This document shows, piece by piece, positions 2,662-60,200 of a stretch of DNA of 64,000 nucleotides; position 1 is the first letter of the stretch, and every line of letters starts with the position of its first letter. A program made the position numbers and the translations under genes. The notes under the pieces are model-generated. The model was not told the origin of the DNA and ran no database searches. It was given only the letters and a program-made list of their open reading frames with translations. The stretch lies in assembly GCF_046119375.1 (NCBI RefSeq), contig NW_027362770.1, positions 190,836,001 through 190,900,000 on the forward strand, read 5' to 3'. Source of the DNA: Phyllobates terribilis. Lineage: Eukaryota.

Positions 2662-3780
<1,119 letters not shown>

Positions 3781-3811
3781 TCTGCTCCAAGCTCTGTACC
3801 CACAACCCAAA

Positions 3812-3853
3812 GGCTCTTCTAAGAGCCACCCACCCCGTCTACATCAGAGCTGT
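3812..3853 (+). terminator. Histone 3' stem-loop and downstream element of H2B copy 1
   Basis: GGCTCT-TCTA-AGAGCC 3812-3827 then ACCCA; CAGAGCTG about 17 nt later. Confidence 0.92.
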
Positions 3854-5423: not shown

Positions 5424-5573
5424 ACCATATAGATTTATACAGCACTATATGGGGGTTTATGGCACTACATGGATGAATACAGTAATTTTTATTTATATAG
5501 CGCCAACATATTCCACAGCATTTTACATTTTAGAGGGGACTTGTACAGACAATAAAACACATTACAGAATAAC

Positions 5574-6822
5574 CTGTATAAACCTATAAGAGAAATGGTG
5601 CACCCCAAAAATGCAACTCAGTGCTAGAGAATGAATTAAAAGATATATATTTTATTTAAGTATAGTTAAAAACCAAAATCACTACAAAAATATAAAAGAA
5701 AGATCAATGGGTATGAGGTGAGAGATACATGAAAGAAAGATCACAGAGGGGCATAGGGGCTCTATATATAAGGGTGCATAAGGGTCCTTTGTATTAATAG
5801 ATGCCAAAACGGCAGTATTCATGGTTTAAGCCACAAACATGCATGGACTCATAGGACAGTACCAGTGCCATGCGCACAATTCAAATAGCAACCTAGTAAA
5901 CAGTATACACATATATGTGCGCTCGCCACTTAACATGAGTCAGGCTTACCCATATGTATCCCGCTGTGATCGCGCCCCGACGTGCGTTTCACGTGGTAGG
6001 CTTCCTCGGGGGGCGGTGTGGTATGTATGAGGTCTCATGTCCATTTATATCCCCATCCTCAATCAAAATGTCCATAACAGCCATTGGTGACGGCGCACGC
6101 GAGCGAAATCCCGGCGTCCATAGGTCACTTCCAGCCATCGCGATGACGGCGCGGGTCAGGAAAGTGTTTCCTGTGATGTCATTTCCCGCGTCGCATCGTA
6201 TGGATGCCTTCGGTGATGATGGTGCTGCAGGGACCCACAGCACGTGCGCACATCCAGGTGGCCATTTTCCTTATGGGCAAAAATGAAGGGCAGAACTCAC
6301 CACTCTCTCGTCTTAAATCATTGTCCAATTAGTGGGTTGTGGAGAGTATTGGGACCGGGGGACCAAGAGAGGAGCATAGAGAGACAACAAACGGGACAGT
6401 CACAATCCGTATGGGAACAAGTAAATCTCATTAAATGGGACATCACTCAAATGCAATATGCGTCGGCATATGTGGTCCCAAGGAAGACAATCCTATATTT
6501 CTTCTGCGTTCCCAAATCTAGGACTGTGTTTATCTCCATATGCGCTCCATTTCTCACAGGATCCCATAATGGCTTATAGAGTTGAGGGTCACGTCCATCA
6601 ATAGGTAGGGTATATAAATAGAGACATCAAAGATAATCTTGTATCCAACTATAGAATGTGAAGAGTATATAAAAATCAGTTAAAAGAACAACATACAAAT
6701 TTAAAACCATTTGGAGAGAGAGGGACAAAAACACGGATTAGCTCTTATAGAAAAGGTGAGAACGATAGTTTTTCATTTAGCCCAGAGGGGGACATGGTGT
6801 CCAGAGCGAAAATCCAACGACA
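5574..6822 (-). repeat. Inverted copy of the Penelope pseudo-LTR
   Basis: Near-identical reverse complement of ~14018-15266; the ORF track gives matching peptides on opposite strands (e.g. 6244-6579 vs 14263-14598). Confidence 0.93.
5973..6015 (-). ncRNA. Minimal type I hammerhead ribozyme motif in the inverted pLTR
   Basis: Minus strand CGCCCC-CCGAGGA-A-GC-CTACCAC-GT-GAA-AC-GCAC-GT-C-GGGGCG: stem I, core with U4C, short stem II, 2-bp stem III, GUC triplet. Confidence 0.7.
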
Positions 6823-8009
6823 AAAAAAATATATATATATATCTTTTAATTCATTCTCTAGCACTGAGTTGCATTTTTGGGGTGCACCATTTCTCTTATA
6901 GGTTTATATACATTATGATGTGGTAAAATCCCCTCTTTCCCCATGTATGGGATAACATGTGAGTTAATCACCCGTTGCGTAGGTATTATGCATATATTGA
7001 CTATACTGTGTATTTTCACAGCTATTCAACCTGAACGCATGGACTATAAGGCACGTGAGAAAACGTGGCTTACCAAACTAGATGAGGTATTTGGTGAGGA
7101 ATCATGTGTGGTTTTAAAAACTGGAGAGACTGAAGACTTGATTACTAAGTTAAAACAACTTTATAATAAGAAAACATGGATATGGTGGAACAAAGCTTTT
7201 CTAGAGAGATATATTAACCCCTTAAGCCCTGCGGGTGGTTTGCACGTTAATGACCGGGCCAATTTTTACAATTCTGACCACTGTCACTTTGAGGTAATTA
7301 CTCTGGAACGCTTCAACGGATCCCCCTGATTCTGAGACTGTTTTTTCGTGACATATTGTACTTCATGATTGTGGAAAAATTTCTTCGATATCACTTGCGT
7401 TTATTTGTGAAAAAAACGGAAATTTGGCGAAAATTTTTAAAATTTTGCAATTTTCAAAATTTTAATTTTTAAGCCCTGAAATCAGAGCGATATGTCACAC
7501 AAAAGAGTTAATAAATAACATTTCCCACATGTCTACTTTACATCAGCACAATTTTGGAACCAAAATTTTTTTTTATTAGGGAGCTATAAGGGTTAAAAGT
7601 TGACCAGCGATTTCTCATTTTTCCAACAAAATTTACAAAACCATTTTTTTAGGGACCACATCACATTTGAAGTCACTTTGAGAGGTCTGTATGACAGAAA
7701 ATACCCAAAAGTGACACCATTCTAAAAACTGCACCCCTCAAGGTGCTCAAAACCACATTCAAGAACTTTATTAACCCTTCAGGTGCTTCACAGGAATTTT
7801 TTGAATGTGGAAGAAAAAAATGAACATTTAACTTTTTTCACAAAAATGTTACTTTAGACCCAATTTTTTTTATTTTCACAGGGGTAACAAGAAAAAATGG
7901 ACCCCAAAATTTGTTGTGCAATTTCCCCTGGGCACGCAGATACCCAATATTTGGGGAAAAAACACTGTTTAGGCGCAAATTTGCTTGAATAACTAGCGGA
8001 CGCCATGTT

Positions 8010-9200
8010 GTGTTTGGAGAGCCCATGTGTGCCCAAACTTTGGAGCTCCCCCACAAGTGACCCCATTTTGGAAACTAGACCCCCCAAGGCACCTTTCTAG
8101 ATGCATAGTGAGCACTTGGAACCCCCAGGTGCTTCACAAATTGATTCGTAACAATGAAAAAGTGAAAAAAAAAACACTTTTTCATTTTTATGAATCAATT
8201 TGTGAAGCACCTGAGGGTTCCAAGTGCTCACAATGCATCTAGATAGGTGCCTTGGGGGGTCTAGTTTCCAAAATGGGGTCACTTGTGGGGGAGCTCCAAT
8301 GTTTGGGCACACAGCGGCTCTCCAAACGCAACATGGTGTCACTAACAATTTGAGCCGATTTTCCGTTAAATTTGTTAGAGGACACCATGTTGCATTTAGA
8401 GAGTCCCTGTGTGCCCAAACATTGGAGCTCCCCCACAAGTGACCCCATTTTGGAAACTAGACCCCCCAAGGCACCCATCTAGATGCATAGTGAGCACTTG
8501 GAACCCCCAGGTGCTTCACAAATTGATTCGTAACAATGAAAAAGTGAAAAAAAAACACTTTTTCATTTTTATGAATCAATTTGTGAAGCACCTGAGGGTT
8601 CCAAGTGCTCACTATGCATCTAGATAGGTGCCTTGGGTGGTCTAGTTTCCAAAATGGGGTCACTTGTGGGGGAGCTCCAATATTTGGGCACACAGCGGCT
8701 CTCTAAATGCAACATGGTGTCCGCTAACAAATTTAACGCAAAATTGGCTCAAATTGTTAGCGACACCATGTTGCGTTTGGAGAGCCGCTGTGTGCCCAAA
8801 CATTGGAGCTCCCCCACAAGTGACCCCATTTTGGAAACTAGACCCCCCAAGGCACCTATCTAGATTCATAGTGAGCACTTGGAACCCCAGGTGCTTCACA
8901 AATTGATTCATAAAAATGAAAGTGTTTTTTTTTCATTGTTACGAATCAATTTGTGAAGCACCTGGGGGTTCCAAGTGCTCACTATGCATCTAGATAGGTG
9001 CCTTGGGGGGTCTAGTTTCCAAAATGGGGTCACTTGTGGGGGAGCTCCAATGTTTGGGCACACAGGGGCTCTCCAAACGCAACATGGCGTCCGCTAACAA
9101 TTTGAGCCGATTTTCCATTCAATTTGTTAGCGGACACCATGTCGCGTTTGGAGAGCCCGTGATGTGCCTAAACAGTGGAGCTCCCCCACAAGTGTCCCCA
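8010..9200. repeat. Array of alternating inverted ~130-bp modules with ~380-bp period
   Basis: GCCCAAAC recurs at 8031, 8413, 8794 and (variant) 9166, with its reverse complement between; similar ORFs appear on both strands. Confidence 0.9.
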
Positions 9201-9320
9201 TTTTGGAAACTATACCCCTCAAGGATTTTATTAAGGTGTATAGTGAACATTTTGAACCCAGAGGTACGGCACATTATTTGTTTACATTAGGTCATCATAT
9301 TGAATAAGTTGTCATTATTC

Positions 9321-9615
9321 TTGAGCGCAAGTGCTCGCTACTTGAGTTTGCATTGGGTACTCAGGTATGCACCATGTACAGCGTGTGCTCGAGTGACATG
9401 CTCGAGTCCCTGCTCCGCATGTTTCACGGTTATTAGACACCCAAAAAAAAACATGCGGGGATCGCTCGTGCATGGCAGGCAATCCCCGTAAAGTTTTTTG
9501 GCCGCGAAGCATATGGGGCAGAGACTCGAGCATGTCACTCAAATACCCACGATACTCAATGCATACCAGAGCACCCGATGCAAACTCAAGTAGCGAGCAC
9601 TTGCTCTCAACACTA
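9321..9615. mobile_element. Short MITE with TAGTGTTGAG-type termini (same terminus type as the large hAT elements)
   Basis: TTGAGCGCAAGTGCTCGCTACTTGAGTTTGCAT ... ATGCAAACTCAAGTAGCGAGCACTTGCTCTCAACACTA; left tip eroded, TSD not seen. Confidence 0.7.
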
Positions 9616-12600
9616 GTCGCCATATCGTCATCTTTTTTTCTTACTTTTGAAAAAAATCCCAACCCCAGCCCTAGCCCCAGCACAACCCTAGCCCCAGCAC
9701 AACCCTAGCCCTAACCCTAGCCCAATCCTAACCCAAGAGTTTATTTTTGACGCCGTTCCTTGTGCGGTATAAGTGATTAGACGAGTTTATTCTTCGGGTC
9801 GGTGTGATTACAGCAATGCCAGAATCATATGGGGTTTTTATGACTGACAGCTGTCACACACTAAAAGACGCATTTTTTGTAAAATCTAATTTTTGCATCG
9901 CCATATTTTGAGAGCTATAATTTTTCAAGATTTTGGCAGACAGTCATGTGACGGCTCGTTTTTTGCGGGATGACGTGACGTTGTTATTGGTGCCATTTTC
10001 AGGCACGTGACATTTTTTGATCGCTTTCTATTCCGATTTTTGGGAGGCAGAATAAACAAAAACCAACAATTCAGGAATTGTTTTTTTTTTTTTTTTATTC
10101 TGTTCCGCGTGTGGTAAAATTGATGAGGTAGCTTTATTCTTCGGGTCAGTATGTTTACAGCGGTACCACATTTGTATCATTTTTCTATGTTTTGGCGCTT
10201 ATACACAATAAAAGCTATTTTATAGAAAAAAATATTTTTTAGTATCGCTTTATTCTGAGAGCTATAACTTTTTTATTTTTCGGCTGATGGAGCTGTATGG
10301 TGGCTTGTTTTTTGCGGGACGAGATGACGTTTTCAGCGGTATCATTTTTATTTATATGCGTCATTTTGATCGCGTGTTATTCCACTTTTTGTTTGGCGGT
10401 ATGGTGATAAAGCATTGTTTTTTGCTTCGTTTTTTTTTTTTTTTTTTTTTTACCGTGTTCACTGAAGGGGTTAACTAGTGGGACAGTTTTATAGGTCAGG
10501 TTGTTCCGGACGCAGCGATACCAAATGTGTACTTTTATTGTTTTTTTTTTAATTTTTTTTATAATATTTATTGATGGGTACATTATATTTTTATTTTTGG
10601 TGTATTATTTTTTTTATTTTATAATATTTTTGCACATTTTTTTTTTTTTTTTCCCACTTTCACACAGTTTATACACTTTATTACTTTGTCCCACTCTGGG
10701 ACTTTCACTTTTTTTTTTCTGATAGCCTGCATGGCACAGGAATGGAGCACCATCCCTATGCCATGAAGGCTGTCAGAAGTGCACAGTGTGAAGATTGCTT
10801 GGAGATGCACTGTGCATGTCCAAGCAATCTTCCTGCTCTCTGGTGACCCGGATGTTGTCATGACGACATCGGGTCGTCATGGCAACACCCGGGAAGCCTT
10901 TGCAGACTGCGCTGGAAGCCGGAAGAGGAGGTGAGTATCGCCGATCACCTCCCCTTGCCCCCACAATGCCGCGATCGACTTCGATCGCAGCATCGCGGGG
11001 GTTAATGTGCTGGGAGCGGTGCAGGACCGCTCCCTGCACATAGTACCGGGTGTCAGCTGTGACAATCAGCTGACACCCGGCGGCGATCGCGCCCGCACAG
11101 CCTGTGTGCGCGCGCGATCGCCATGACGTACTAATACGGGTCTGGGTATTAAGTCCCAGGGCACAGACGCGTATTAGTACGTCAGATGTCAGTAAGGGGT
11201 TAAGGGACTGATTCCCCGAGGCCTTCGCGTGCAGGTTTTTCCTCCATTTACAATTGAAGATGAGGGGTTTAAGAAGGAGTGGGAAAACCTATCTAACTGC
11301 TCCAGGGGGTACATGGAATTATTAATCAAATCCAATATGACCACCCTGGAAATGATTGAAAGTGAAATCAACTCAATCCAGGTGACTTTGACAGAAAAAC
11401 TTGACTCTGAAGCATTGTTGAAGGTTAATAAAGATCAGGAGGGGGACTTTGTGATATGGGAAAAAGAGATTGTGAATTCTAAGTCTAAAAAATATCAAAG
11501 GGATCTCTTGGATTACGCTGAGAACCATGTTTATAGATGGAGGAACAAACAGAGGTCGAACAATGCGACCCCCAGACCCCGGACACACTCTTTCTCATCC
11601 TTATCCTCAATGGATGAGGATCCCTCTACAAGCAGCCAGTTTGGCAATACTTATAAAGAGCGGATTGGTCAGGCAAGGCAAGGATCTAATAAGGGCAAAA
11701 GCCAGAATAAACGCAAACTAACACCACCCCAGTCCAAGGAAAAGAAGCCCAAACAAAGCAATAGTTTAGAGGTAATCAACCTTTCTGAACACGTATTAAC
11801 CGATGCACAACGGGAAGTACTTAGCTTAGGTCTTACTTTTGTCCCTGATAACAACTTTGATTCTTTTTTAGCAATAAAAGACTTACAACTCTTTCTAAGA
11901 AAAGTAACTTTACGAAAACTTCATACTCGCCCGGTGAGTGGACAGGACCTGAATACCTTACAAGAGGAGGAAGCGTTAGCGGCATTGGAGGTGTTGGCAC
12001 AAGAGAGTATCCCTGCTGCTACAGGTGCCTTCCCGTCCTCGGTGTTGCCTAGATCGACCACGTTCCCCCCCCTTCTCCCTGTGCCCCCAGATAGAAATAT
12101 TTAACAAACTTGTTAATGAGGATTTTAAAAGGATTCCCAATTGGAGGAGAAATGATAATTTGACGGGGGTCCAACATAAAGCCCTCAAGGAATTGAGGGG
12201 CATGAAGGATGTGGTCATAAAACCAGCAGATAAGGGGGGCAATGTGGTGGTCTGGCCGGCTCGGAGGTACAAGAAGGAGGCCTTTAGACAGCTGAGGGAC
12301 CGTGAGGCATATACCCCTCTTACCCATAATCCCTTGAGTGACTTCTCTCAAACTCTAATTGATATTCTGGAACGAGCATTTGCACAGGGGATCATCCCCC
12401 AAAAAATATTTGATGGGTTGGTGGTACAGTGTCCGGTAGTCCCTACATTCTGTTTACTACCCAAAGTACATAAGAATGCTCTCGAACCCCCGGGACGTCC
12501 GATTGTCTCTGGCATAGGAGGGCTTTGTGACCCTGTGTGCAAATTTATTGAACACTACTTACATCCTTTGGTCGAAACCTTGCCCTCCTATGTCAGGGAC

Positions 12601-14017
12601 ACTACGGACGTCCTTAGAAAAATCGATGGTCTGTACTTGGATTCAGATATGACCCTGGTTACTGCGGATGTCGAATCTCTGAACACCAGCATTGATCATT
12701 CGGATGGATTGGAGGCAGTAGAATTCTTCCTTAGTACGAGTAACCTAGACTCGGCACTATGGCACTTTGTTTTGGAACTCCTACAATTTATTTTAACTCA
12801 TCATTTTTTTACATTCAAAGACCGCTTCTTCTTACAGAGACGAGGCACTGCGATGGGGGCGGCGTGTGCGTCGTATGCCAACCTCTTTCTGGGATATTGG
12901 GAGAGGGAGGTTGTCATTGACGGCGCGGGTGCCTCCTCCCATGCGCAGTGCTGGTACAGATATATAGACGATCTATTTATCATTTGGCAGGGGTCGGAGC
13001 CTGGGCTTCATGACTTCATCTGTGAACTCAATAAGAACAAAAGAAACATCAAACTCACTTACAAACACTCGAGGAAAGAGATTGACTTCTTGGATGTGAA
13101 AACAAGAGTGCAAAATAATGGTGCGCTCCAGACGGATGTGTACCGGAAGGAAACATCAGTAAATTCCCTCCTCCATGCAACTTCGGCACATACTGTACAT
13201 ACAATCCGTGCAGTACCAACAGGTCAATTTCTTAGAGTGAAGCGTATCTGCTCCTCAGAGGAGATCTTTGAGGCTCAGGCTTGGGACCTGTCAAACCGAT
13301 TCTTTGAACGCGGATACAGTAGGAGAGCCGTAAAACAGGGATACCATTGTGCCAAAAAAACACCTCGAGACTTGTTATTGGTGAATAAAAGTAAAAACTC
13401 CAAGAAAGATCCCCCTTTGAGATTTAGCTCAACTTTCAACAATCAATGGCCGAGAATGCGACAAATATTACAAAAACACTGGCCGATTCTCACTACAGAA
13501 CCTACTTTGAGGAGAATCCTTCCTGACCATCCATTACTTACCGCAAGGAAAAGTCGGAATTTGAGAGACATATTAGTAAGGAGCCACTATGTGGCAAATC
13601 CTCCGAACCCGTTCGGTGCTGGTGTGCAGAGATGGGGCTGTTTTCCATGCGGATCCTGCATGGCATGCAGAAACATGACTAGAGCTGCCTGTTTTTCATC
13701 TTCTGATGGGGGTAGGGACTATCGGATCACTCATTACATCTCTTGTAGTACAAGTTATGTTATTTATCGTGCCACTTGTACTTGCAACCTCCATTATGTA
13801 GGACTCACGTCCCGACAGTTCCTCATACGAGTGAGGGAGCACATCAGAGACATTAAAGCCGCGAGCACGGCTGAGGATGTCTCTGTATTAAAAACCATCC
13901 CAAAACACTTTAGGTTACACCATAAGTGCAATACTGATGAAATTAAATTTATTGGAATAGACAGAATATTATGTGGTATCAGGGGAGGTGACAAAGAAAA
14001 TCTTAGCTCAAAGAGAA

Positions 14018-15347
14018 TGTCGTTGGATTTTCGCTCTGGACACCATGTCCCCCTCTGGGCTAAATGAAAAACTATCGTTCTCACCTTTTCTATAAGAGCT
14101 AATCCGTGTTTTTGTCCCTCTCTCTCCAATTGGTTTTAAATTTGTATGTTGTTCTTTTAACTGATTTTTATATACTCTTTTCACATTCCATAGTTGGATA
14201 CAAGATTATCTTTGATGTCTCTATTTATATACCCTACCTATTGATGGACGTGACCCTCAACTCTATAAGCCATTATGGGATCCTGTGAGAAATGGAGCGC
14301 ATATGGAGATAAACACAGTCCTAGATTTGGGAACGCAGAAGAAATATAGGATTGTCTTCCTTGGGACCACATATGCCGACGCATATTGCATTTGAGTGAT
14401 GTCCCATTTAATGAGATTTACTTGTTCCCATACGGATTGTGACTGTCCCGTTTGTTGTCTCTCTATTCTCCTCTCTTGGTCCCCCGGTCCCAATACTCTC
14501 CACAACCCACTAATTGGACAATGATTTAAGACGAGAGAGTGGTGAGTTCTGCCCTTCATTTTTGCCCATAAGGAAAATGGCCACCTGGATGTGCGCACGC
14601 GCGGTGGATCCCTGCAGCACCATCATCACCGAAGGCATCCATACGATGTGACGCGGGAAATGACATCACAGGAAACACTTTCCTGACCCGCGCCGTCATC
14701 GCGATGGCCGGAAGTGACCTATGGACGCCGGGATTTCGCTCACGTGCGCCGTCACCAATGGCTGTTATGGACATTTTGATTGAGGATGGGGATATAAATG
14801 GACATGAGACCTCATACATACCACACCGCCCGCCGAGGAAGCCCACCACGCGAAACGCGCGTCGGGGCGCGATCACAGCGGGATACATATGGGTAAGCCT
14901 GACTCATGTTAAGTGGCGAGCGCACATATATGTGTATACTGTTTACTAGGTTGCTATTTGAATTGTGCGCATGGCACTGGTACTGTCCTATGAGTCCATG
15001 CATGTTTGTGGCTTAAACCATGAATACTGCCGTTTTGGCATCTATTAATACAAAGGACCCTTATGCAGTGCTTATAGAGCCCCTATGCCCCTCTGTGATC
15101 TTTCTTTCATGTATCTCTCACCTCATACCCATTGATCTTTCTTTTATATTTTTGTAGTGATTTTGGTTTTTAAATATACCTAAATAAAATATATATCTTT
15201 TAATTCATTCTCTAGCACTGAGTTGCATTTTTGGTGTGCACCATGTCTCTTATAGGTTTATATACATTATGATGTGATAAAATCCCCTTTCACCATGTAT
15301 GGGATAACATGTGAGTTAATCACCCGTTGCGTAGGTATTATGCATAT
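14018..15347 (+). repeat. Penelope 3' pseudo-LTR
   Basis: Overlaps the ORF end and is repeated (inverted and partly direct) at the 5' end of the element. Confidence 0.9.
14827..14869 (+). ncRNA. Minimal type I hammerhead ribozyme motif in the 3' pLTR
   Basis: CGCCCG-CCGAGGA-A-GC-CCACCAC-GC-GAA-AC-GCGC-GT-C-GGGGCG; palindromic ACGCGCGT stem III; predicted cleavage after C14863. Confidence 0.72.
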
Positions 15348-15689
15348 ATTACAGAATAACAATCTCATAAATCAGCAGATACCAGGAGGAGTGAGGGCCC
15401 TGCTGCTCAGAAGCTTACAATCTGAGGAAATGGGGGAAACACGAAAGGTGGAAGGTAACAATTGCTGGTATTATACGGTCAAGCATCAATGTAATAAATG
15501 GGGTAATCACATAATGCAGCATGAACCAGTCACCAACCAGTATGTGAACAAATACAGACACAGAAGTCTAAGAAGTACATGGGAGTGTGTGAGCAGATGA
15601 TGCCAGGGACCGGATTATGTATGGGGAAAAAGATAGTTAAATAAGTACATATACGTACGTATACAGCAGTACATGGGGGTAGATGGCTC

Positions 15690-21939: not shown

Positions 21940-22356
21940 CTCGTGCCCGCAACCACCGGGTACTGCGTGCCTGGAAAAAAAAAAAAAGACTGTTCAAACT
22001 TACCTGTGGTGAAGATTCCCGCCATCCGGCGCCATCTTCCCGCCATCGGTGGAGTTTTCCCGCCATCCGGCGCCATCTTCAGCCTTCTTCCCGCCATACG
22101 TGGAGTTTTCCCGCCATTGGACGCCATCTTGAGGACGCCGCGCGGGAAGAAGAGGGGCGTGGACTCCGAAAGCGCGCGAGAACTGAAGCCCCGCCTCACG
22201 TCCGGACGTTGCCTAAGGTCCTGGAAGGAGCCCAGCAGACGCCGACGTCACAGGAGCGCGACGGAAGGTCCTCAACCCTGACGATCCACTGCGGAGCCGC
22301 GGCCTACGGAAGAGGATCATCGCAAGGTAGGCCACGGTCCACTAGGGGGGAGAAGG

Positions 22357-23337
22357 ATGTCGGATACGGAGGAGAGCTTCACCGCTTCAACCCCCGCCAG
22401 CGCCACCGCTGTGGCGGTCATGCCTTTCACCATGCCCTATATCCCGGGGGCAGCCTGGCTACCCCAGTACTCGGGGGAGTCACATACCCTGCATGACTTT
22501 AGAGAAAAGCTGGATAGCCTCTTCCAGGTGTACCCCCTCACAGAGGAGCAAAAAGTGAGCATCCTGGTGGCCCAATTAACCGGGGCAGCCCAAAGGGAGG
22601 TAAAGTCCTGGCCACCTGGGGGGAGGACTGTCGCAGGGATACTAACCCGGCTGAGGGACACCTTTGATACCCGCACCTCAGCCGAGATCAAGCTTAGATT
22701 CTACGGGTGCAAACAGCGGGCACATGAGAGTATAAGGGACTATGCCCTGAACCTACAAGAGGCCCTGAGAGCCATTAAGCAGACCGACCCTGACGGCGTG
22801 GGAGACGAGGACAGGCTGTTGACTGAACAATTTATAGATTGTTTATATTGCAATGCCCACCGAACCCAGTTGCGGGCAATGGCCTTACAGGACCCTCATC
22901 TGGGATTTGCACAGTTCAAGGACAGAGCCATCCGGGTGCTCCGAGAACCGGCACCAGGTGGCGTTGTGACCCACAGACGCCCCACTACCACTTACCACCA
23001 GGAGGCGGCGCCCTTGTCGGCAGGGCCTGTGGGAGCTGATGCGCAGGCTTTGAACAATGACCCGGCTCCACACCTGCACCATCAGGTCCAAGAGCTAGCT
23101 AAAAGCGTTGCTGCGCTAACCCGAACTGTGCAGTCTTTACAGGTTTCCACAACAGGGAAGATCCAGCTGGCATCCGGACCGGAGGACATCCCGTGGCGTC
23201 GACCAAGGAGGACCCCACCGGCCAGAGGAAGACCCAGCGACCGATACAACGAGGACGGACGACCCATCTGCCGCCGCTGCAATCAACCCGGACATATGGC
23301 AAGGTACTGTCCTTTAAACTGGCACAACCTGGGGTAG
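22357..23337 (+). CDS. gag: Gypsy Gag (capsid-like domain plus CCHC zinc knuckle), 326 aa
   Basis: Intact ORF after the PBS; CRRCNQPGHMARYC knuckle. Confidence 0.92.
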   Translation: MSDTEESFTASTPASATAVAVMPFTMPYIPGAAWLPQYSGESHTLHDFREKLDSLFQVYPLTEEQKVSILVAQLTGAAQREVKSWPPGGRTVAGILTRLRDTFDTRTSAEIKLRFYGCKQRAHESIRDYALNLQEALRAIKQTDPDGVGDEDRLLTEQFIDCLYCNAHRTQLRAMALQDPHLGFAQFKDRAIRVLREPAPGGVVTHRRPTTTYHQEAAPLSAGPVGADAQALNNDPAPHLHHQVQELAKSVAALTRTVQSLQVSTTGKIQLASGPEDIPWRRPRRTPPARGRPSDRYNEDGRPICRRCNQPGHMARYCPLNWHNLG

Positions 23338-26255
23338 AGGGCCAACCCCCAGGAAAAAGATCACCAGGCCCATCGAACTGGCGCGACAAATATGTCGGAG
23401 GACGTCCAGTCTTACCCGTGGTACTGGATGGCATTCCTATGAGTGCCCTACTGGACACCGGGTCACAGGTCACCACCATCCCGTACGTGCTCTTCAAGCA
23501 GTACTGGAATGACTCGGATATCACCCGCTACCCTGACGACGACTTGAGTATCATCGCCAGCAATGGTCAGCCCGTGCCACAGATTGGATTTAAAGAGGTG
23601 ACCATTAAAATCGGTAGAGTCGAATTGGCAGCACAGGGACTGATCATTGTAGACATTGACAAACACGAGAGTCACCCAAAGATAACTCTAGGAACTAATG
23701 TAATTGAAAATTGTCTTGCAGAGGTGATTTTCCTTTTACAGCAGGTTGCCAAGAACGCCAGCTCCGGCCAGCAGCGAGTGCTCCAGAAAGAGATCCGGGC
23801 ACTGATGCGACGGCAACAGCTAGAACTCTCCGGTGGTGAGATTGGTAGCGTGCGAATGTGTGACCCTTTCCCTATTGCCATGCCCCCGAAAAGTGAAATG
23901 ATGATTTGGTGCCGGGCAGCTATTGGTCTGAGAGGTAGAGATTACCAGGCAATGGTAGAACCAGTTTACTCAGACAGTAGGCCCACCATTTTGACAGCAC
24001 GGGGGGTGGTCAATGTACGCCATGGGAGGGTGCCCGTTCGCATAATAAATATCGGGAAGAGGGAAGTGTACCTGCCCCGGTATGCCACGCTAGCCAAATT
24101 GTATACCATCAATCAAGATTCCATACAGTCCGTAGAACCCTTGCCTCCATCTTCCCCGGAGGAAGGTAACGGCTCTAAGAAAACAATGGGGGACTGGTGT
24201 CAGCAACTACATTTGGGTACCGACTCCACTCCCGCACACCAGAAACAAGGAGTCTATCGGGTGGTTCAAGAGTACGAGAGAGTGTTTAGTAAACACCCGT
24301 TAGACTTCGGGCGAGTCAAGGGGGTAGAACACCACATCCCCACGGGAGACCATCCTCCCATAAAAGAGAGGTATCGACCCGTACCCCCTGCCCACTACCA
24401 ACACGCCAAGGGGATGCTTAGAGACATGAAGGAGGCTGGGGTGATCAGGGATAGCTGTAGCCCCTGGGCAGCTCCACTAGTCTTAGTCAAAAAGAAAGAC
24501 AACACCATGAGGATGTGTGTAGATTACCGGAAAATCAACCGTATCACACACAAGGATGCGTACCCCTTACCAAGGATAGAGGAGTCTTTGGCTGCTTTAA
24601 GATCTGCTAACTTCTTCTCTACCTTGGATCTCACTAGTGGGTACTGGCAGGTTCCTGTAGCAGAGGCGGACCGGGAGAAGACCGCATTCACCACCCCGAT
24701 GGGACTTAGCGAGTTTACCTGCATGCCGTTCGGACTCTGCAACGCACCAGGAACCTTCCAACGATTAATGGAGTGCTGTCTGGGCCACAGAAACTTCGAG
24801 ACGGTCTTGTTGTACCTGGACGATGTCATCGTATATTCCAAGACGTATGAGGACCACCTGAAACACCTGGCGGAAGTGTTCGAAGCTCTGGCAAGCTACG
24901 GCCTAAAGGTGAAACCCTCCAAGTGTCACCTCCTGAAACCAAATGTGCAGTACCTGGGACACGTGGTGAGCGCTGATGGAGTGGCTCCCGACCCTGATAA
25001 GATCACCGCAATTAAGGAATGGCCAAGTCCCTCCAGTGTAAAGGAAGTGCGGCAGTTCCTCGGGTTGGTAGGCTATTACCGCCGATTCATCCCCGGTTTC
25101 ACCAAAAAGGCAGCTCCTATGCAGGACCTCCTGATAGGCCAGTCCCGGAAGGCCAAGAACCAGAAGCCACCCTTCAGATGGGAGAAGTTAGAAGAAGAGT
25201 CCTTCCGCCAGCTGAAGATGGCCCTCACGGGGGATGAAATCCTGGCGTACCCTGATTACAGCCAGCCCTTTATCCTCTACACCGACGCAAGTAACATCGG
25301 GCTAGGACTTTGTGAGAAAATGAACCAGGTGGTAATGGATCTTCTGAAAACGTTGCCCCTGGAAGAACGCAGTCTGTGGCCTGAGAAGCTGCCCGATCTG
25401 GTGGACCTATACAACCACATCCCGGTAGGTTCCACCAACTGTACCCCGGCTTACCTAATGAGGGCAAGGCCTGGTAAGCTACCTGTTGACCTGGAGATGG
25501 GAGTCCTGACACCCGAGGACACTTCACCGGAAGCAGACTGGGACACAGAGAGGCAGCAGCAGTACCGGAAAGTACAGGAGAGCGTGGAGCGAAGTCTCTG
25601 TCTCGCTAGGGAAAGACAAGAGAAAACTTACAACCAGTATGCTTCCGCTGTTCCCCTGGTACCCGGAGAGCAGGTCTTGAAGAGGAAGAGACGGCTCCAC
25701 AAGTTGGACGACCAGTGGGAGAAGGACCCGTACACCGTACTGCCCTCAAGCCACGACAACCCGAAGGTTTGTACCATCAGTAAAGACGGAGGAGAAACCA
25801 CAGCCATTGTATCCCGGGATCACCTGAAGAAGTGTCCCGAACAGCTACGGAACCCAGAAGGAGAGCAAGAATACCCTCGACCCGTAGAGGAAAGGGAAGA
25901 TATGGTTAGTACTGTGCTCGGAGACTTCCCTCGGTCCTGCACTCAAGTCAATGGTGCAGTTGTGGTACCCGTCCTCACGTTCCTCCAACCAGTATCCCAA
26001 GTGCCTACGGAGCAACAGGTAGAGCTGGAAGAGCAGCCGGTCCAGGAGGCAGCAGACTCCACACAAGCAGAACAGGAGGATCAACCCTCTGCTCATAGTG
26101 AGCCTGCCGTACCCCTAGTGAGCCAAAGAGCCCGTAGACAGCTGCCCAGTTTACCCTTGACAGCTCCTACACCCTGTAGTTCAGGGCCAGACAGTCAGCT
26201 CCGTAGGTCCACTAGGGCCACTAGAGGCCAGTTACCCGCACGTTGGAGGATTTGA
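23313..26255 (+). CDS. pol: Gypsy Pol (protease, RT, truncated RNase H fused to the integrase C-half), probably entered by -1 frameshift
   Basis: LLDTGSQVT, SPWAAPLVLV, CVDYRKIN, MPFGLCNAP, LYLDD; YTDASNIGLG is fused directly to LCEKMNQ. Confidence 0.9.
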   Translation, partial: FKLAQPGVEGQPPGKRSPGPSNWRDKYVGGRPVLPVVLDGIPMSALLDTGSQVTTIPYVLFKQYWNDSDITRYPDDDLSIIASNGQPVPQIGFKEVTIKIGRVELAAQGLIIVDIDKHESHPKITLGTNVIENCLAEVIFLLQQVAKNASSGQQRVLQKEIRALMRRQQLELSGGEIGSVRMCDPFPIAMPPKSEMMIWCRAAIGLRGRDYQAMVEPVYSDSRPTILTARGVVNVRHGRVPVRIINIGKREVYLPRYATLAKLYTINQDSIQSVEPLPPSSPEEGNGSKKTMGDWCQQLHLGTDSTPAHQKQGVYRVVQEYERVFSKHPLDFGRVKGVEHHIPTGDHPPIKERYRPVPPAHYQHAKGMLRDMKEAGVIRDSCSPWAAPLVLVKKKDNTMRMCVDYRKINRITHKDAYPLPRIEESLAALRSANFFSTLDLTSGYWQVPVAEADREKTAFTTPMGLSEFTCMPFGLCNAPGTFQRLMECCLGHRNFETVLLYLDDVIVYSKTYEDHLKHLAEVFEALASYGLKVKPSKCHLLKPNVQYLGHVVSADGVAPDPDKITAIKEWPSPSSVKEVRQFLGLVGYYRRFIPGFTKKAAPMQDLLIGQSRKAKNQKPPFRWEKLEEESFRQLKMALTGDEILAYPDYSQPFILYTDASNIGLGLCEKMNQVVMDLLKTLPLEERSLWPEKLPDLVDLYNHIPVGSTNCTPAYLMRARPGKLPVDLEMGVLTPEDTSPEADWDTERQQQYRKVQESVERSLCLARERQEKTYNQYASAVPLVPGEQVLKRKRRLHKLDDQWEKDPYTVLPSSHDNPKVCTISKDGGETTAIVSRDHLKKCPEQLRNPEGEQEYPRPVEEREDMVSTVLGDFPRSCTQVNGAVVVPVLTFLQPVSQVPTEQQVELEEQPVQEAADSTQAEQEDQPSAHSEPAVPLVSQRARRQLPSLPLTAPTPCSSGPDSQLRRSTRATRGQLPARWRI

Positions 26256-33122: not shown

Positions 33123-34238
<1,116 letters not shown>

Positions 34239-34269
34239 TCTGCTCCAGGCTCTACACCCACAACCCAAA

Positions 34270-34310
34270 GGCTCTTCTAAGAGCCGCCCACCCCGTCTAC
34301 ATCAGAGCTG
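34270..34310 (+). terminator. Histone 3' stem-loop and downstream element of H2B copy 2
   Basis: GGCTCT-TCTA-AGAGCC 34270-34285, CAGAGCTG downstream. Confidence 0.92.
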
Positions 34311-38090: not shown

Positions 38091-41000
38091 TTATGCTACT
38101 CTGCTGTCATTTGGTGGTGATGAGAAGTCTGACCCAATCCAGCCCTTGTTCATTTTGATAAGGGTCAGCTTGTCAGCATTGTCAGTTGACAGGCGAGTGA
38201 GCTAATCAGTTATAATTCCCCCAGCGGCACTAAAAACACGCTCCGATAACACGCTAGCGGCAGGGCAGGTCAGGACCTCCAAGGCGTACAGAGCGAGTTC
38301 ATTCCAAGTGTCCAGCTTGGATACCGATTAATTAAAAGGCACAGAGGAATCACGGAGGACGCTGGTACGGTCGGCAAGGTACACCCTCACCATCTTTTGA
38401 AACTTTCCACTCCTTGTGAGAGTACCCCGCGCCTCAGGGCCTGAAAGCTGGGCTGGTCTCAGAAAACTGTCCCAGAACGTTGACAGTGTTCCCCTGCCTC
38501 TGCTGGATTGGAGCTGTGTTTCTCTTGCCTGTACGCCTTGGTTGGTCAACGAACTGTGACCTCTGCCGCTAGCGTGTTCAGATGGGAACATTTTTAACAG
38601 TTCTGCAGCATGGGGCTTCTGGTACTGCCCCATTTTTGTAGACCTCTCCACCTCAGGAATAAGAGAGTGAAAGTTCTCCTTGTAGCGGGGGTCTAAAAGT
38701 GTCACCAACCAGTAATGACTGTTACCCAACATTTTGACAACGCGATGGTCACGGTTAAGGCAGCGTAACATAAAGTCAGCCATGCGTGCCAGACTGGTAA
38801 CGGGCAAGACTTCCGTGTCCTCACCAAGATGATGACTGACCATGCTCTCCTCCTCCTCCTCCTCCCCCCTGTCCTCAGGCCACCCACGCTGAACCGACAG
38901 TATGACAGTTGTACAGGTACTACCGTCTACAGCGCATGATACAAGCTCCTGTTCTTCCTCCTCCTCCTCCTCCTCTCCCTCATTGTCCCCCAATGCACGT
39001 TGGGATGAGATGAGGCTGGGCTGTGTGTAATCGGCCGCTATGGCTTCTTGATCCCTCTCATCATACTCTGGCTGCAATGCCTCCTCTTTAATTCTCTGCA
39101 GAGAGCGTTGCAAAAGACAGACAAGTGGAATGCTGACGCTAATGATGGCGTCATCGCCACTCACCATCTTGGTGGACTCCTCAAAGTTTGTCAGGATATT
39201 ACATATGTCAGACATCCAGGTCCACTCCTGAGGTCTTATGTGTGGAGTCTGACCTGAATATCGACGGCCTTGTTGCAGCTGGTACTCCACAACTGCTCTC
39301 TTCTGCTCACAAATCCTTTGCAACATGTGGAGGGTAGAGTTCCAACGTGTGGGGACATCACGCACCAGTCGGTGTGACGGAAGCTGCAAACGCTGCTGCG
39401 ACACAGCAAGGGCGGCGGAAGCTGTAGCCGACTTGCGAAAATGATCTGACAGGCGGCGTACTTTGACGAGTAGATCTGGCAACTCTGGGTACGATTTAAG
39501 AAACCGCTGAACCACGAGGTTAAGCACATGAGCCTGGCATGGTACGTGTGTGATCTCGCCTCGCCTCAGAGCCGCCACCAGGTTACGGCCATTGTCACAC
39601 ACGACCATGCCTGGATGTAGGTTCAGCGGTCTCAGCCACAGATCTGCCTGCTCTTTCACAGCTGTCCACAACTCACAAGCAGTGTGAGGTTTCTCACCTA
39701 AGCTTAGGAGTTTCAGCACAGCCTGTTGCCGTTTGGCGGAGGCAGTACTGCAATGCTTCCAGCTTGTAACTGATGTGGTGATATCTGAGATGGAGGCTGA
39801 ACATGAGGAGGTGGAGGATGATGCGCAGGAGCTGTACACTGTGGGGGCAACTCTGACTGACATAGGGCCCGCAATCCTCGGTGTGGGGAGGATGTGTTCC
39901 GTCCCAAGGTCCAACTGGGTCCCGACTTCCACTATGTTTACCCAGTGTGCCGTCAGGGAGATGTAGCGTCCCTGGCCACAAGTACTTGTCCACGTGTCCG
40001 TTGTCAGGTGGACTCTCCCAGAAACTGCGTTGTTGAGGGCACGGCAGATGTTTTGGGACACGTGCTTGTGTAGTGCGGGGATGGCACACCGGGCAAAATA
40101 GTTTGGGCTGGGTACCGAGTACCGAGGGACGGCCACTGCCATAAGATTGCGGAATGATTCCATCTCCACCAGCCTAAAAGGCAGCATTTCCAATGCAAGC
40201 AGTCGTGAAATGTGCGAATTTAGGACTGTGGCCTGTGGGGCGTTAGCTGCGAATTTCCGCTTTCGTTCAAAGGTCTGGGATATGGACAATTGAACGCTGC
40301 GGTGGGACGTGGACGTTGATGCTGTTTCTTGAGAAACTGCCATAACAAGTGAAGACTGAGAGGAGGGGGCATCTTTGCATGCAGTATGGACAGGGGATTG
40401 CCTTGCACGCACAACAGGGGGTTCTATTGCATTCACAACAGTGGAAGAAGCATGGTGACACCCGCTGACACTGGTCGTGGACCCTGGGGTTCGCCCCACA
40501 AAGACGGCTGCTTTACTGCCATGTGCCTGATCATGCTGGTGGTGGTCAGGCTGGTAGTTTTGTCACCCCTGCTGATGCTGGCATGGCAGGTGGTACAAAT
40601 GGCCTTTTTGGGGTTATCAGCAGAGTCTTTAAAAAAATTCTAGACTCTGGAAGACCTACCGCTTGTACTGGCAACGTCCCTCGTGTTGGTGTTATGGGGA
40701 ACGGTTGCCCGCCTTCTGTCTGTGGCCACCACACTGCTTCTTCCTGCCTGTTGGAGTTCTCTGCCTCCCTCCCCCTGTGTGCTGCTGGCCTCACTCTGCA
40801 TGTCCTCCTGCCACGTTGGGTCAGTTACTAGATCATCCACCACCTCCTCCTCTTCCACTTGCGCACCACGATCCTCCTCCTCACTTCCTGGCAATTGTGT
40901 CTCGTCATCGTCCACCTCTTGTGACAAATTTCCAGCGTCAACTTCCTGTGGCCGCGGCTGTTCAAATATTTGGGCATCGCTACATGGGATCTCCTCTTCC

Positions 41001-41437
41001 ACCACTTCAAGCGGAGCAGGCGAGGGGCACAAATCTGGAAATGGACCAGTGAACAGCTCTTCAGATTGTCCAAGTGTGGGATCACTTGCTGTCTGACGAC
41101 ACTCGGCATGGTGGGAGGAAGGAGCATCAGGGTGAGGAGGAGTATGCGGTCGAGACTCACGGCTACTAAGAGTTGACCGTGTGGAAGACAGACCGGAGGT
41201 GGTGGTGCCCAGGTAACTGGAAGTATTATCTGCTATCCAATTAATAACCTGTTCACACTGATCAGTTCTCAATACTGGTGTTGTTCTGTGCTTCCCTAGT
41301 AATTCGGTCAAGAAATGGAAGCGAGACGATGTGGCTGTTGGTTGTGGCACATTTTCACCTTGGCCACGGCCCCGTCCTCTGCACGCCCCATCACCAGAAC
41401 GTTCAGTTCCACATCCCTTGCCACGCACCTTGCCCAT
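38091..41437 (-). pseudogene. hAT (Ac/ZBED-like) transposase with BED finger and C-terminal dimerization domain, with premature stops
   Basis: V*NFF...AICTTC...MIRH BED relic; LTTDTWTS, VCDNGRN, RWNSTLHML; C-terminal segment homologous to copy 2 ACPAASVLSERVFSAAG. Confidence 0.92.
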
Positions 41438-42802
41438 TGTAAATGAAGTAAAATAGCTTACACTCGCACTATCAAACGAAAAAGGGTAATAAAAAGTAGA
41501 TTAGAACCGTAGAAGAGGGAAACCACAGTTCTATTTCTCTGGCCTACACCCGACTCTTTTAAACAATCTGAACAATCAGGGAGAAAATATTACTGTTTTT
41601 CTTTACGGAAAAAATACCAAAAGCTGAATAATAGAGATTTCTTACCGTGGAACAGCAAAAACACAGTTATTGTTTACTGGGGTATACCAGACTTTTTTAA
41701 ATATATATATTTGCGGCTGAACAGTGAGCGACACACTCAAACTGTTTTTTTTTAGATAAAAATGGCCCAAAAGTGGATAATACAGAAATTTGAACTATGG
41801 AACTGCAAAACCACACTTCTGTTTGTCTAGCCTACACCAGACTATTTTCAACAGATATATTTGTGTCTGAAAAATCAGAGACACACTTTTTTTTTTTTTA
41901 TTTTTTGGGGGGGACACCAAAAGGTTAATAAGACGGGTATTTGTACAGTGTGAAGGAGGAAAAAAAAAAGAGAATTTAGATGGAAAAAAAAGGATTTTTC
42001 CTGGCCCCCGAGCCCTGGAGCTAAGTCCAGCAATTTCAGCAACAGGAGCACAGAGGACTGTAATGCAGCGTTTGCTGGTATAACCACTGCGTCTCCTATA
42101 CAGCCTGCCTGCCTGCCTGATATCTGGGATGGATATTAGTCCTGAGAAGGACTGTTTGTTTGATCTGGCAGCCTTTACAGACCCTACACTAACTATTTTG
42201 CAGGATATATCTCTCCCTAAATCAGCAGCGCTGTCCCTACACTGTCTGATCCCAGGCGACTGTGTCCAAGATGGCAGCGCCCGGTTTTAAATACTCGAGG
42301 TGACGCTGTGCGGCCAGCCAATCACTGTAATGCCCACAACCAACATGGCTGCGGCATTACAGTGACTGGCTGGCAATCCCTGCATATTCATTGGCTCTGT
42401 AAAGAGCGCCAAACATGCAGGGCGGAGACCCGAGCTCCCTCCCGAGTAACCCGGAAATGCTTGATGCTCGCCGAACATCCCGAGTAGCGTGATGCTCGGG
42501 CGAGTACCGAGCAGTGTCGAGCATGCTCGCTCAACACTAGTGCCCTCGTATCCATGCCCCCTCCTGATTATATGGACGGCCTCTTCAGAACTCTACAAGT
42601 GGTGACAGTACCATTTTTATTATTGCACTGGTTGACTTTTGCACTATATGTTTTGTATTTGTTTAGATATCTATCTGTTGGTTTAGCTGCAGTTATAAAA
42701 TTCTCTATTAAAAGTTACTTTTTATATATCGGATCCCTGGTGCTAGTGATTTACCTTGATGGGATCATTGTGCCCCTTGTGGGTTATTGCTGTTTCTATA
42801 GT

Positions 42803-43468: not shown

Positions 43469-43999
<531 letters not shown>

Positions 44000-57130: not shown

Positions 57131-57206
57131 TCCACGGTTCTAATCTACTCTTTATTACCCTTTTTCCATTGATAGTGCAAGTGTAAGCTATTTTACTTCA
57201 TTTACA

Positions 57207-60200
57207 AAGGGCAAGGCGCATGGCAAGGGACGTGGAAGTGGACGTTCTGGTGAAGGTTCGTGCAGAGAACGGGGCCGTGGCCAAGGTGAAAATGTGCCAC
57301 AACCAACAGCCACATCTTCTCGCTCCCACTTCTTGACCGAATTACTAGGGAAGCACAGAACAACACCAGTTTTGAGAACTGATCAGTGTGAACTGGTTAT
57401 TAGTTGGATAGCAGATAATACTTCCAGTTACCTGGGCACCACCACTTCCGGTCTGTCTTCCACACGGTCAACTCTTAGTAGCCGTGAGTCTCGACTGCAT
57501 ACTCCTCCTCACCCTGATGCTCCTTCCTCCCAACATGCCGAGTGTCGTCAGACAGCAAGTGATCCCACACTTGGACACTCTGAAGAGCTGTTCACTGGTC
57601 CATTTCCATATTTGGGCCCCTCGCCTGATACGCTTCAAGTGGTGGAAGAGGAGATCCCATGTTGCGATGCTCAAATATTTGAACAGCCACGGCCACAGGA
57701 AGTCGACGTTGGCAATCTGTCACAAGAGGTGGACGATGACGAGACACAATTGCCAGGAAGTGAGGAGGAGGATCGTGGTGCGCAAGTGGAAGAGGAGGAG
57801 GTGGTGGATGATCTAGTAATTGACCCAACGTGGAAGGAGGACATGCTGAGTTAGGCCAGCAGCACACAGGAGGAGGGAGGCAGAGTACCCCAACAGGCAG
57901 GAAGAAGCAATGTGGTGGCCGCAGACAGAAGGCAGGCAACCGTTCCCCGTAACACCAACACGAGGGACTCTGCTGATAACCCCAAAAAGGCCATATGTTC
58001 CCCCTGCCATGCCAGCATCAGCAGGGGTGACAAAACTACCAGCCTGACCACCACCAGCATGATCAGGCACATGGCAGCAAAGCATCCGACTTTGAGGGGC
58101 GAAACCCAGGGTCCACGACCAGTGTCAGCGGGTGTCACCACTGCTTCTTCCACTGTTGTGCGTGTAATAGAACCCCCTGTTGTGTGTGCAAGGCAATCCC
58201 CTGTCCATACTGCATGTAAAGATGCCCCCTCCTCTCAGTCTTCACTTGTTATGGCAGTTTCTCAAGAAACAGCATCAACGTCCACGTCCCACCGCAGCGT
58301 TCAATTGTCCATATCCCAGACCTCTGAATGAAAGCGGAAATTCGCAGCTAACGCCCCACAGGCCACAGTCCTAAATTCGCACATTTCACGACTGCTTGCG
58401 TTGGAAATGCTGCCTTTTAGGCTGGTGGAGACGGAATCCTTCCGCAATCTTATGGCGGTGGCCGTCCCTCGGTACTCGGTCCCCAGCCGACACTATTTTG
58501 CCCGGTGTGCCATCCCCGCACTACACAAGCACGTGTCCCAAAGCATCTGTCGTGCCCTCAACAACGCAGTTACTGGGAGTATCCACCTGACAACGGACAC
58601 GTGGACAAGTGCTTGTGGCCAGGGACTGTACATCTCTCTGACGGCACACTGGGTAAACATAGTGGAAGCCGGGACCCAGTCGGACCTTGGGACGGAACAC
58701 ATCCTCCCCACACCGAGGATTGCGGGCCCTATGTCAGTCAGAGTTGCCCCCACAGTGTACAGCTCCTGTGCATCATCCTCCTCCTCCTCCTCCTCATGTT
58801 CAGCCTCCATCTCAGATATCACCACATCAGTTACAAGCTGGAAGCATTGCAGTACTGCCTCCGCCAAGCGGCAACAGGCTGTGCTGAAACTCATAAGCTT
58901 AGGTGATAAACCTCACACTGTTTGTGAGTTGTGGACAGCTGTGAAAGAGCAGGCAGATCTGTGGCTGAGACCGCTGAACCTACATCCCGGCATGGTCGTG
59001 TGTGACAATGGCCGTAACCTGGTGGCAGCTCTGAGGCGAGGTGAGATCACACACGTACCATGCCTGGCTCATGTGCTTAACCTCGTGGTTCAGCGGTTTC
59101 TTAAATCGTACCCCGAGTTGCCAGATCTGCTCGTGAAAGTACGCCGCCTGTCAGCTCATTTTCGCAAGTCGGCTACAGCTTCCGCCGCCCTTGCTGTGTT
59201 GCAGCAGCGTTTGCAGCTTCTGGCACACCGACTGGTGTGTGATGTCCCCACACGTTGGAACTCTACCCTCCACATGTTGCAAAGGATTTGTGAGCAGAAG
59301 AGGGCAGTTGTGGAGTACCAGCTGCAACAACGCCGTCGATATTCAGGTCAGACTCCACACATAAGACCTCAGGAGTGGACTTGGATGTATGACATATGTA
59401 CCATCCTGACAAACTTTGAGGAGGCCACCAAGATGGTGAGTGGCGATGACGCCATCATTAGTGTCAGCATCCAACTTGTCTGTCTTTTGCAACGCTCTCT
59501 GCAGAGAATTAAAGAGGAGGCATTGCAGCCAGAGTATGATGAGATGGATCAAGAAGCCGTAGCGGGCGATTACACACAGCCCAGCCTCATCTCATCCCAA
59601 CGTGCATTGGGGGACAATGAGGGAGAGGAGGAGGAGGAGGAGGAAGAACAGGAGCTGCTATCATGCGTTGTAGACGGTAGTACCTGTGCAAGTGTCATAC
59701 CGTCGGTTCAGCGTGGGTGGCCTGGGGGGAGGAGGAAGAGGAGGAGGAGAGCATGGTCAGTCGTCTTCTTGGTGAGGACACGGAAATCTTGCCCGTTACC
59801 AGTCTGGCACGCATGGCTGACTTTGTTACGCTGCCTTAACCATGACCCTCGCGTTGTCAAAATGTTGGGTGACAGTCATTACTGTTTGGTGACACTTGTA
59901 GACCCCCGCTACAAGGAGAACTTTCACTCTCTTATTCCTGAGGTGGAGAGGTCTACAAAAATGGGGCAGTACCAGAAGGCCCTTGCTGCAGAACTCTTAA
60001 AAAAATTCCCATCTGAACACGCTAGCGGCAGAGGTCACAGTTCGTTGCCCAACCAAGGCGTACAGGCGAGATAGATGCAACTCCCATCCAGCAGAGGCAG
60101 GGGAACACTGTCAACGTTCTGGGACAGTTTTCTGACACCCACCCAGCTTACAGGCCCTGAGGCGCGGGGTACTCTCACACGGAGTGGAAAGTTTCAAAAG

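Follow-up and report, generated by a model that had tools for sequence, protein, structure and literature searches.

A C4 variant of the minimal type I hammerhead in several lineages of Neptune-type Penelope-like elements of a frog, with insertions beginning at the predicted cleavage site

Core position 4 of hammerhead ribozymes is near-invariantly a U. Minimal type I hammerheads occur in the pseudo-LTRs (pLTRs) of metazoan Penelope-like elements (PLEs), with the consensus CUGANGAH, an extra base after A9 and, in the available text, U3-A8 as the variant noted (Cervera and de la Pena 2014, PMC4209133); according to a review (PMC6765202), the small PLE hammerheads of Lunse et al. 2017 have a short palindromic stem III and cleave as dimers. 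The frog motif analyzed here resembles those of PMC4209133 in its place in the pLTR, the extra base 9/10.1, the G10.1-C11.1 pair, the palindromic helix III, the N-U-H cleavage site and the dimer architecture. However, it has a fixed C4, whereas all rows examined in Figure S3 of that study have U4, and its helix II comprises 2 bp compared with 3-8 bp. Beyond what the available text of PMC4209133 describes, genomic 5' ends of the frog elements point to cutting in vivo.

The same substitution is known from a viroid hammerhead cited in Perreault et al. 2011 (PMC3088659), in which the natural U4C change reduced activity in vitro but permitted infectivity. There it is a rare variant of a tertiary-stabilised ribozyme, in contrast to the minimal, dimer-type hammerheads of the frog, whose C4 is fixed in retrotransposon lineages. 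The Poseidon element PAc of the anole (Frangieh et al. 2024, PMC11167929) shares with the frog element a hammerhead near the ORF start and two internal reverse-transcription starts giving two 3' ends; its hammerhead was cut only in the presence of protein, and none of the RNA-seq reads had an end at that position. Unlike PAc, the frog element is of the Neptune type, has a C4 core and has insertions beginning at the cut site. Matches to the descriptor CYGANGA in a deep-sea RNA virome, where C or U was allowed and seen at position 4, are driven by that descriptor, do not come from retrotransposons and, in the available text, are given without lineage-level fixation (PMC13481778). In the U14C neomycin riboswitch an N3-protonated C replaces the U of a U-turn and keeps the base-phosphate hydrogen bond, but this is an engineered, non-catalytic RNA and not a hammerhead (PMC4105743, PMC6061696). 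In the literature consulted we found neither lineage-wide fixation of C4 in PLEs nor insertions starting at the cut, which does not establish their absence from print.

The hammerhead of the window copy and its host element

All positions refer to the window, i.e., the whole stretch of 64,000 nucleotides that was analyzed. It belongs to a 10.6-Gb frog assembly, and the closest named proteins come from dendrobatid and other hyloid frogs. At 14827-14869 on the plus strand, a motif match and the Rfam model RF00163 identify a minimal type I hammerhead of the C4 variant with a private G2.1-G1.1 mismatch. Its stem I arms lie at 14827-14832 and 14864-14869, G14832 facing G14864. The core C3-C4-G5-A6-G7-G8-A9 (CCGAGGA, 14833-14839, C4 being 14834) is followed by one extra A at 14840, between A9 and G10.1, so that core and extra base span 14833-14840. 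Helix II (14841-14851) has two G-C pairs, invariant in 26/26 C4 motifs, which close a 7-nt loop, and GAAA is present on its 3' side. The palindromic helix III ACGCGCGT occupies 14855-14862, C17 is 14863, and cleavage is predicted between C17 and G1.1 (14863/14864). The self-duplex of helix III, calculated at -13.3 kcal/mol, would suit a dimer and is permissive for dimer function, nothing further.

All the features named in the preliminary description, namely the type I topology, the 2-bp stem II, GAAA, the palindromic stem III and the G-G mismatch in stem I, were found at this place. The covariance-model search that it had proposed yielded RF00163 as the sole Rfam match in 14780-14920, covering the full model with three helices around the core and an open stem I; the score of 20.4 bits (E 0.0076 for the 141-base stretch, E 0.54 when 10 kb were scanned) is below the gathering score of 34. 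The core departs from the consensus CUGANGA with its U4, as C stands at 14834 and in the family, while C3-G8, G5, A6, A9, G12, A13, A14, A15.1-U16.1 and H17 are all present. The traits of minimal PLE hammerheads were likewise found, i.e., the pLTR location, the extra base after A9, G10.1-C11.1 and a palindromic 15-16 region. A model built from 26 C4 motifs, with the window copy itself among the training sequences, finds only two sites in the window, this hammerhead and 5971-6017 on the minus strand, and reversed-pattern controls gave 0-4 matches per strand compared with hundreds to thousands for the true patterns. The predicted minimum-energy folds are not the hammerhead, neither for the monomer nor for the dimer (z of the window copy -0.47). 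The motif is confirmed as a hammerhead of the minimal type I kind, and the PLE that carries it in its 3' pLTR is of the Neptune type and dead.

The closing pair 2.1-1.1 of stem I is G-G in the window copy but C-G in the family. This mismatch occurs in 1/30 similar loci, that is in the window copy alone, and contigs of four sequencing runs carry C at the position; judged by these sequences, it is private decay. Since disruption of the closing pair served as a mutant control for a PLE hammerhead (supplement legend of PMC4209133), the window hammerhead is probably inactive, and the window copy itself is an ordinary fossil.

The 3' pLTR extends over 14100-15350 (plus strand). Copies of the family have their ends near 15265-15278 or at 15350, which leads us to infer two reverse-transcription starts. 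A putative promoter is marked by a TATA box at 14793-14798, found at the same place in the compared C4 and U4 families, and the 5' ends of sister insertions indicate a transcription start zone at 14813-14827 with its mode at 14823 (both plus strand). Downstream of the hammerhead, at 14889-14897 (plus strand), a likely start codon and splice donor (ATG-G, then GTAAG) would open a phase-1 intron. In six loci (L033, L034, L035, L036, L084, L087) ATG-G and a GT(A/G)AG donor lie 24-39 nt past the cut, and splicing to a TTTTCACAG acceptor located about 430-510 nt further on would keep the frame, which makes a phase-1 intron retained in the genomic copies likely, with splicing predicted.

The RT and GIY-YIG part of the ORF (11202-14092, plus strand) has two frameshifts, near 12070 and 14000, and is 82-86% identical to the intact ORF of locus L033. 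It is interrupted by a later 4-kb insertion flanked by TTAA (7218-11199, no strand assigned), which is absent from the duplicate locus L040 and contains long inverted repeats (7977-9130) that account for spurious matches to plant miRNAs in Rfam. At 6827-7217 (plus strand) lie the short end of the 5' pLTR and the N-terminus of the ORF, with a splice acceptor at 7013-7021 but without promoter or hammerhead. An inverted arm of the same element follows at 5561-6822 on the minus strand, about 98% identical to 14018-15278, with a second hammerhead copy at 5973-6015 (minus strand) that has C4 and a perfect stem I but also C11.1 changed to T and a broken palindrome. The core CCGAGGA had been reported from two pLTR copies; C4 is indeed present in both, but the second belongs to the inverted arm, and its assignment to a tandem 5' pLTR was rejected. 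As the element has no promoter-bearing 5' pLTR, it is, to judge from its sequence, dead. Its near-identical copies on C10 (L002-L005, L007-L009), which have a single junction in common, resemble segmental duplicates.

The intact L033 element has a single ORF with RT and C-terminal GIY-YIG, with YIDD at residue 668 and YIIY/HYVG at 933/945. Homologues carry PF00078 and some PF01541, while a Pfam scan of the window ORF alone gave no match at E 0.001 and a weak one to RVT_1 at E 0.037. The pLTRs, the inverted truncated arm and an optional tail correspond to PLE architecture. A CX2-5CxxC linker, which precedes the endonuclease in Neptune and is absent in Penelope and Poseidon (PMC8557442), is matched at residue 894 of the L033 ORF. 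This linker suggests an EN+ Penelope-like element of the Neptune type; the trees comprised elements of this genome and unlabelled homologues.

Elsewhere in the window, reading frames at 2662-3843, 33123-34301 and 43469-43999 are, as recognized from their translations, presumably histones H2A, H2B and H4. From their motifs we take 22282-26255 to be an LTR-retroelement gag-pol region, and 38328-41500 and 57144-60074 to be two inverted copies of a hAT-like transposase. When sequencing runs X1, X2, X3 and X7 were compared with 14873-15349, a deep contig of a related copy was obtained that has a hammerhead without helix III; its depth was 155 vs 20 in X1, and it is possibly a highly expressed or amplified derivative.

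Position 4 in the family and in related lineages

Exact patterns of the window family gave 79 C4 and 2 U4 matches, one of the latter belonging to another family, and C4 is present in 29/30 similar loci, the exception being a U4 revertant. The full-length elements L033 and L034, which are 99.3% identical and have ORFs of 1045 aa, carry C4 in both pLTRs; further C4 elements with ORFs of 1055-1064 aa are L084 and L097. Between the window copy and L033, 41/43 bases of the motif are identical, compared with 501/666 upstream and 280/392 downstream.

A general pattern applied to the whole genome matched 1064 C4 motifs (575 + 489) and 9759 U4 motifs, with 2-4 matches for reversed controls. Among matches without C at 10.2, C4 occurs at a background of about 1% (90/8881, the other 8791 being U4), whereas with C at 10.2 there are 974 C4 and 968 U4 matches. 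Descriptors based on CUGANGA would miss about a tenth of the motif class in this genome (1064/10823). A compensatory pair C4-G7 was considered and rejected, since position 7 is A, C or U in 575 of the C4 motifs. One motif that normally has C4 also exists in a U4 version, which has been amplified in many spaced copies (G000 C307; C8:365-369 Mb), probably inside a larger duplicated unit, and in L093 and L094 C4 motifs have a 10-base palindromic helix III.

The C4 motifs flank long ORFs that are 44-65% identical to that of L033. Among 86 loci examined, the ORF end was followed by the motif in 40, and 36 were long enough for a tree. C4 makes up 19 rows of this tree and four of its deep lineages, among which two U4 lineages branch at a base that the tree leaves open; two changes at position 4 are needed, one C4 clade is marginally rejected (AU p 0.04), and a single origin of C4 does not emerge from this tree. 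Additionally, 70 loci were selected by protein search irrespective of the motif (the top 30 and 40 hand-picked from the other 120). The motif was present in 67 of the 70, with C at position 4 in 65 and T and A in one each. Position 7 varies in these motifs (40 A, 27 G), while the core positions are kept in 62-67/67, the lowest value being that of G12 (62/67), which is at a CpG, and H17 is C or T in 67/67.

In 10 ORFs of the main C4 clade, the four-fold sites sum to 4.36 changes per site, and 8/93 C-bearing and 0/12 CpG four-fold columns are invariant. C4-G5 is itself a CpG and decays toward the canonical U; C4 is nonetheless kept. As C4 is one site and some neutral C columns of the main clade are likewise invariant, its retention, with a probability of about 0.09 under neutral C, is suggestive, and the argument would be stronger if the deeper lineages share an origin. 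The stem covariation asked for in the preliminary description was also observed: in 26 C4 motifs, 91.9% of the cells are paired and 6/6 stem I pairs show changes on both sides, a covariation score reached by 0/500 shuffles, although relatedness inflates this control.

Taken together, these comparisons identify C4 as the state of the family, not as decay, and place it in at least four lineages of deep divergence. The earlier proposal that C4 was inherited from the active parent agrees with its occurrence in both pLTRs of copies with intact ORFs, with the 79 vs 2 matches and with 65/67 loci; the proposal was right about inheritance, but in speaking of two copies it underestimated the scope, which extends to several lineages and about 1000 copies.

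Outside this assembly, C4 is also kept in a contig from a run labelled organism B, a weak indication as it is a single contig. Of two metagenome scans for the motif, one returned 0 matches and the other 17, all of them without the downstream U-H-GGGG arm and taken as chance. In a comparison made by proteins alone, homologues from other frogs are placed within the C4 clades or next to them.

Insertion 5' ends at the predicted cleavage site

The preliminary description had predicted a 5' end at 14864, and genomic sister copies begin at exactly the equivalent base. Copies starting at the cut were searched with a pattern that excludes U16.1 before the 3' arm of stem I. In the window family 7/57 matches were of this kind, of which six are family copies beginning at G1.1 and one is a chance match. 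An anchor downstream of the motif gave 37 matches, 30 of which were examined. Among these 30 family copies, 5 have their 5' end at G1.1, 1 at about +7, 7 at -37 to -51 and 6 at -202 to -538, and 11 extend past -600; none starts at -1 to -36 from the cut. The cluster at -41 lies about 30 nt below the TATA box, from which we infer a cap site or transcription start. For 5 of 19 ends to fall on one base named beforehand, a uniform null gives p 1e-10, and a harsh null without the fold-back, with 4 of 13 ends within 60 bases, gives p 5e-5.

In the second C4 lineage (L085), 21/232 matches are without U16.1. They comprise 16 clean starts at G1.1, 2 internal deletions, 1 insertion, 1 fold-back and 1 repeated start. 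Inspection by eye of 30 sampled copies of this lineage placed the start at the cut in 4 and at about -22 to -45 in 12. The third C4 group (L084/L096) yielded one cut-start copy. All four Gs are kept in 19/22 cases, and C17 is absent in 12/12 cases from families with C17. Three short restarts at G1.1 stand in tandem in L306, and an internal deletion has removed the palindrome in L291 and L292.

Canonical U4 families show the same footprint, with cut starts in 1/51 and 7/202 matches (4 events in the latter); 8/8 matches, representing 5 events, are at G1.1. These two U4 families serve as positive controls for the cut-start pattern.

Cut-start copies have lost the core, and the base at position 4 of the parent is deduced from relatives. 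In the window family, the identity of L251, L252, L254 and L255 to C4 copies is 96-100%, compared with 69-90% to the one U4 copy, while L256 is equally close to a U4 copy, so that its parental base is ambiguous. In the L085 lineage, L304, L307, L320 and L331 are 99-100% identical to C4 copies; several other cases of this type are without a close relative among the sequences compared. Some 60 bases away from the cut-start copy in L254 (1400-1503), another family is represented by an inverted U4 hammerhead, an arrangement that suggests insertion into the pLTR of another element.

Since insertions start sharply at G1.1 both in the C4 lineages and in the U4 families, cleavage by C4 hammerheads in vivo is likely. 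In vivo cleavage could then be read from DNA, by insertion 5' ends that fall at the scissile bond.

Proposed mechanism and alternative explanations

Our preferred reading, to which we assign a probability of roughly 60%, is that the C4 variant is fixed in several Neptune-type lineages, that the window copy has decayed, and that C4 hammerheads likely still self-cleave after C17 in vivo. Transcription from the pLTR promoter would start about 41 nt before the cut, just above stem I, and a full-length transcript would hold two hammerheads that could pair through the palindromic helix III. Monomers would mostly fold otherwise; a common alternative is a hairpin of 5 bp that stacks on stem I, which is the predicted fold in 4/5 copies folded and whose ACGC arm occurs in 770 C4 vs 176 U4 motifs, many of the latter belonging to one amplified array. 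A fraction of the RNAs would be cut, probably with help of the protein of the element, which may refold the RNA, by analogy with the anole PLE hammerhead, which was cut only with protein. Reverse transcription from the internal starts would run to the RNA 5' end, and the resulting copies would begin at the cap (uncut RNA) or at G1.1 (cut RNA). Cutting would deprive the RNA of its cap, 24-39 nt ahead of the likely start codon, or sever the 3' priming region from the ORF, and for this reason only part of the RNA could be cut.

What C4 would do in the core may be approached by analogy. U4 contacts the phosphate between A6 and N7, and U4C considerably lowers hammerhead activity in vitro (PMC3088659). 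Every single mutant of the CUGA turn in a type III hammerhead showed low activity in the available data (PMC9901934), and an Aedes construct labelled cCgauga seems to belong to the inactive RNAs of PMC3088659, an assignment that is our reading of the label. C4 could replace U4 if it were protonated at N3. We regard it as doubtful that C4 is positively maintained in this way, with a protonated cytidine in place of U4 giving a pH- or protein-gated hammerhead that would alternate between an off hairpin and an active dimer and decap its own mRNA as feedback; the insertion ends would then be a fossil in vivo activity assay for core variants.

It is improbable that the C4 RNA is only a substrate, cut in a mixed dimer whose core comes from a U4 hammerhead, be it that of another family or of a revertant copy. 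In a dimer the core of one RNA cuts C17 of the other; U4 families have the ACGCGCGT palindrome too, some with matching stem I arms (L112, L116 and L129 for the window family, L103 for L085), and U4 motifs outnumber C4 motifs nine to one. However, two different RNAs would have to meet, while every full-length transcript already carries a pair of C4 motifs. These motifs moreover keep G5, A6, G8, A9 and G12-A14 near-invariant, which a pure substrate would not need, and U4 revertants are rare (1/67 and 1/30).

A slightly lower probability is given to the motif being kept uncleaved, as a structure or protein-binding site, with the reverse transcriptase stopping or switching template at the stem I junction. 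The competing hairpin and the excess of its arm in C4 motifs would fit such stops, the fold-backs L255 and L308 (one or two per lineage) join at the GGGG run and are explainable by its microhomology, and the anole PLE inserts in vitro without cleavage (PMC11167929). Nevertheless, stops would be expected at the foot of stem I (+6/+7), where there is one case (L259), or at C17, while the observed starts are at G1.1 with C17 excluded in all 12 cases. Insertions of canonical U4 families whose stem is different (GAGG) also begin at this base, G1.1, and at -2 to -9 there is no clear start, the five matches being three unrelated flanks and two whole palindromes.

Less probable again is that C4 cleaves slowly and that slowness is selected, because a cut at the 3' hammerhead would separate the ORF from the priming site. 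The published loss of activity of U4C in vitro would agree with this, as would the company in which C4 is found, namely the shortest helix II, with G-C at 10.1-10.2 in 974/1064, and the competing hairpin, and so would the resistance of C4 to CpG decay to U. The preliminary description had likewise considered C4 a possibly attenuated variant. This finds no support in the insertion ends: cut-site starts are no rarer in two C4 groups (21/289) than in two U4 families (5 events in 253; Fisher p 0.004), the third C4 group having one case, and cut vs cap starts are 9:19 for C4 and 0:7 for U4 (p 0.15). As the denominators include duplicated loci and the patterns differ in stringency, which biases the ratios and makes them a weak proxy, our conclusion is confined to C4 appearing not visibly weaker than U4 in vivo. 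The paired C4 and U4 families of this one genome are ready constructs for studying the tolerance of a core change that is harmful in vitro.

That C4 reflects neutral decay or a chance match is very improbable: the Rfam score below the gathering threshold, the ~1% of motifs in U4 families that carry C4 as single mutants and the degenerate window copy would fit it, but C4 is fixed in intact, near-identical full-length copies and over saturated synonymous distances, reversed-pattern controls are near zero, and neutral decay, refuted for the family, holds for the G-G mismatch only.
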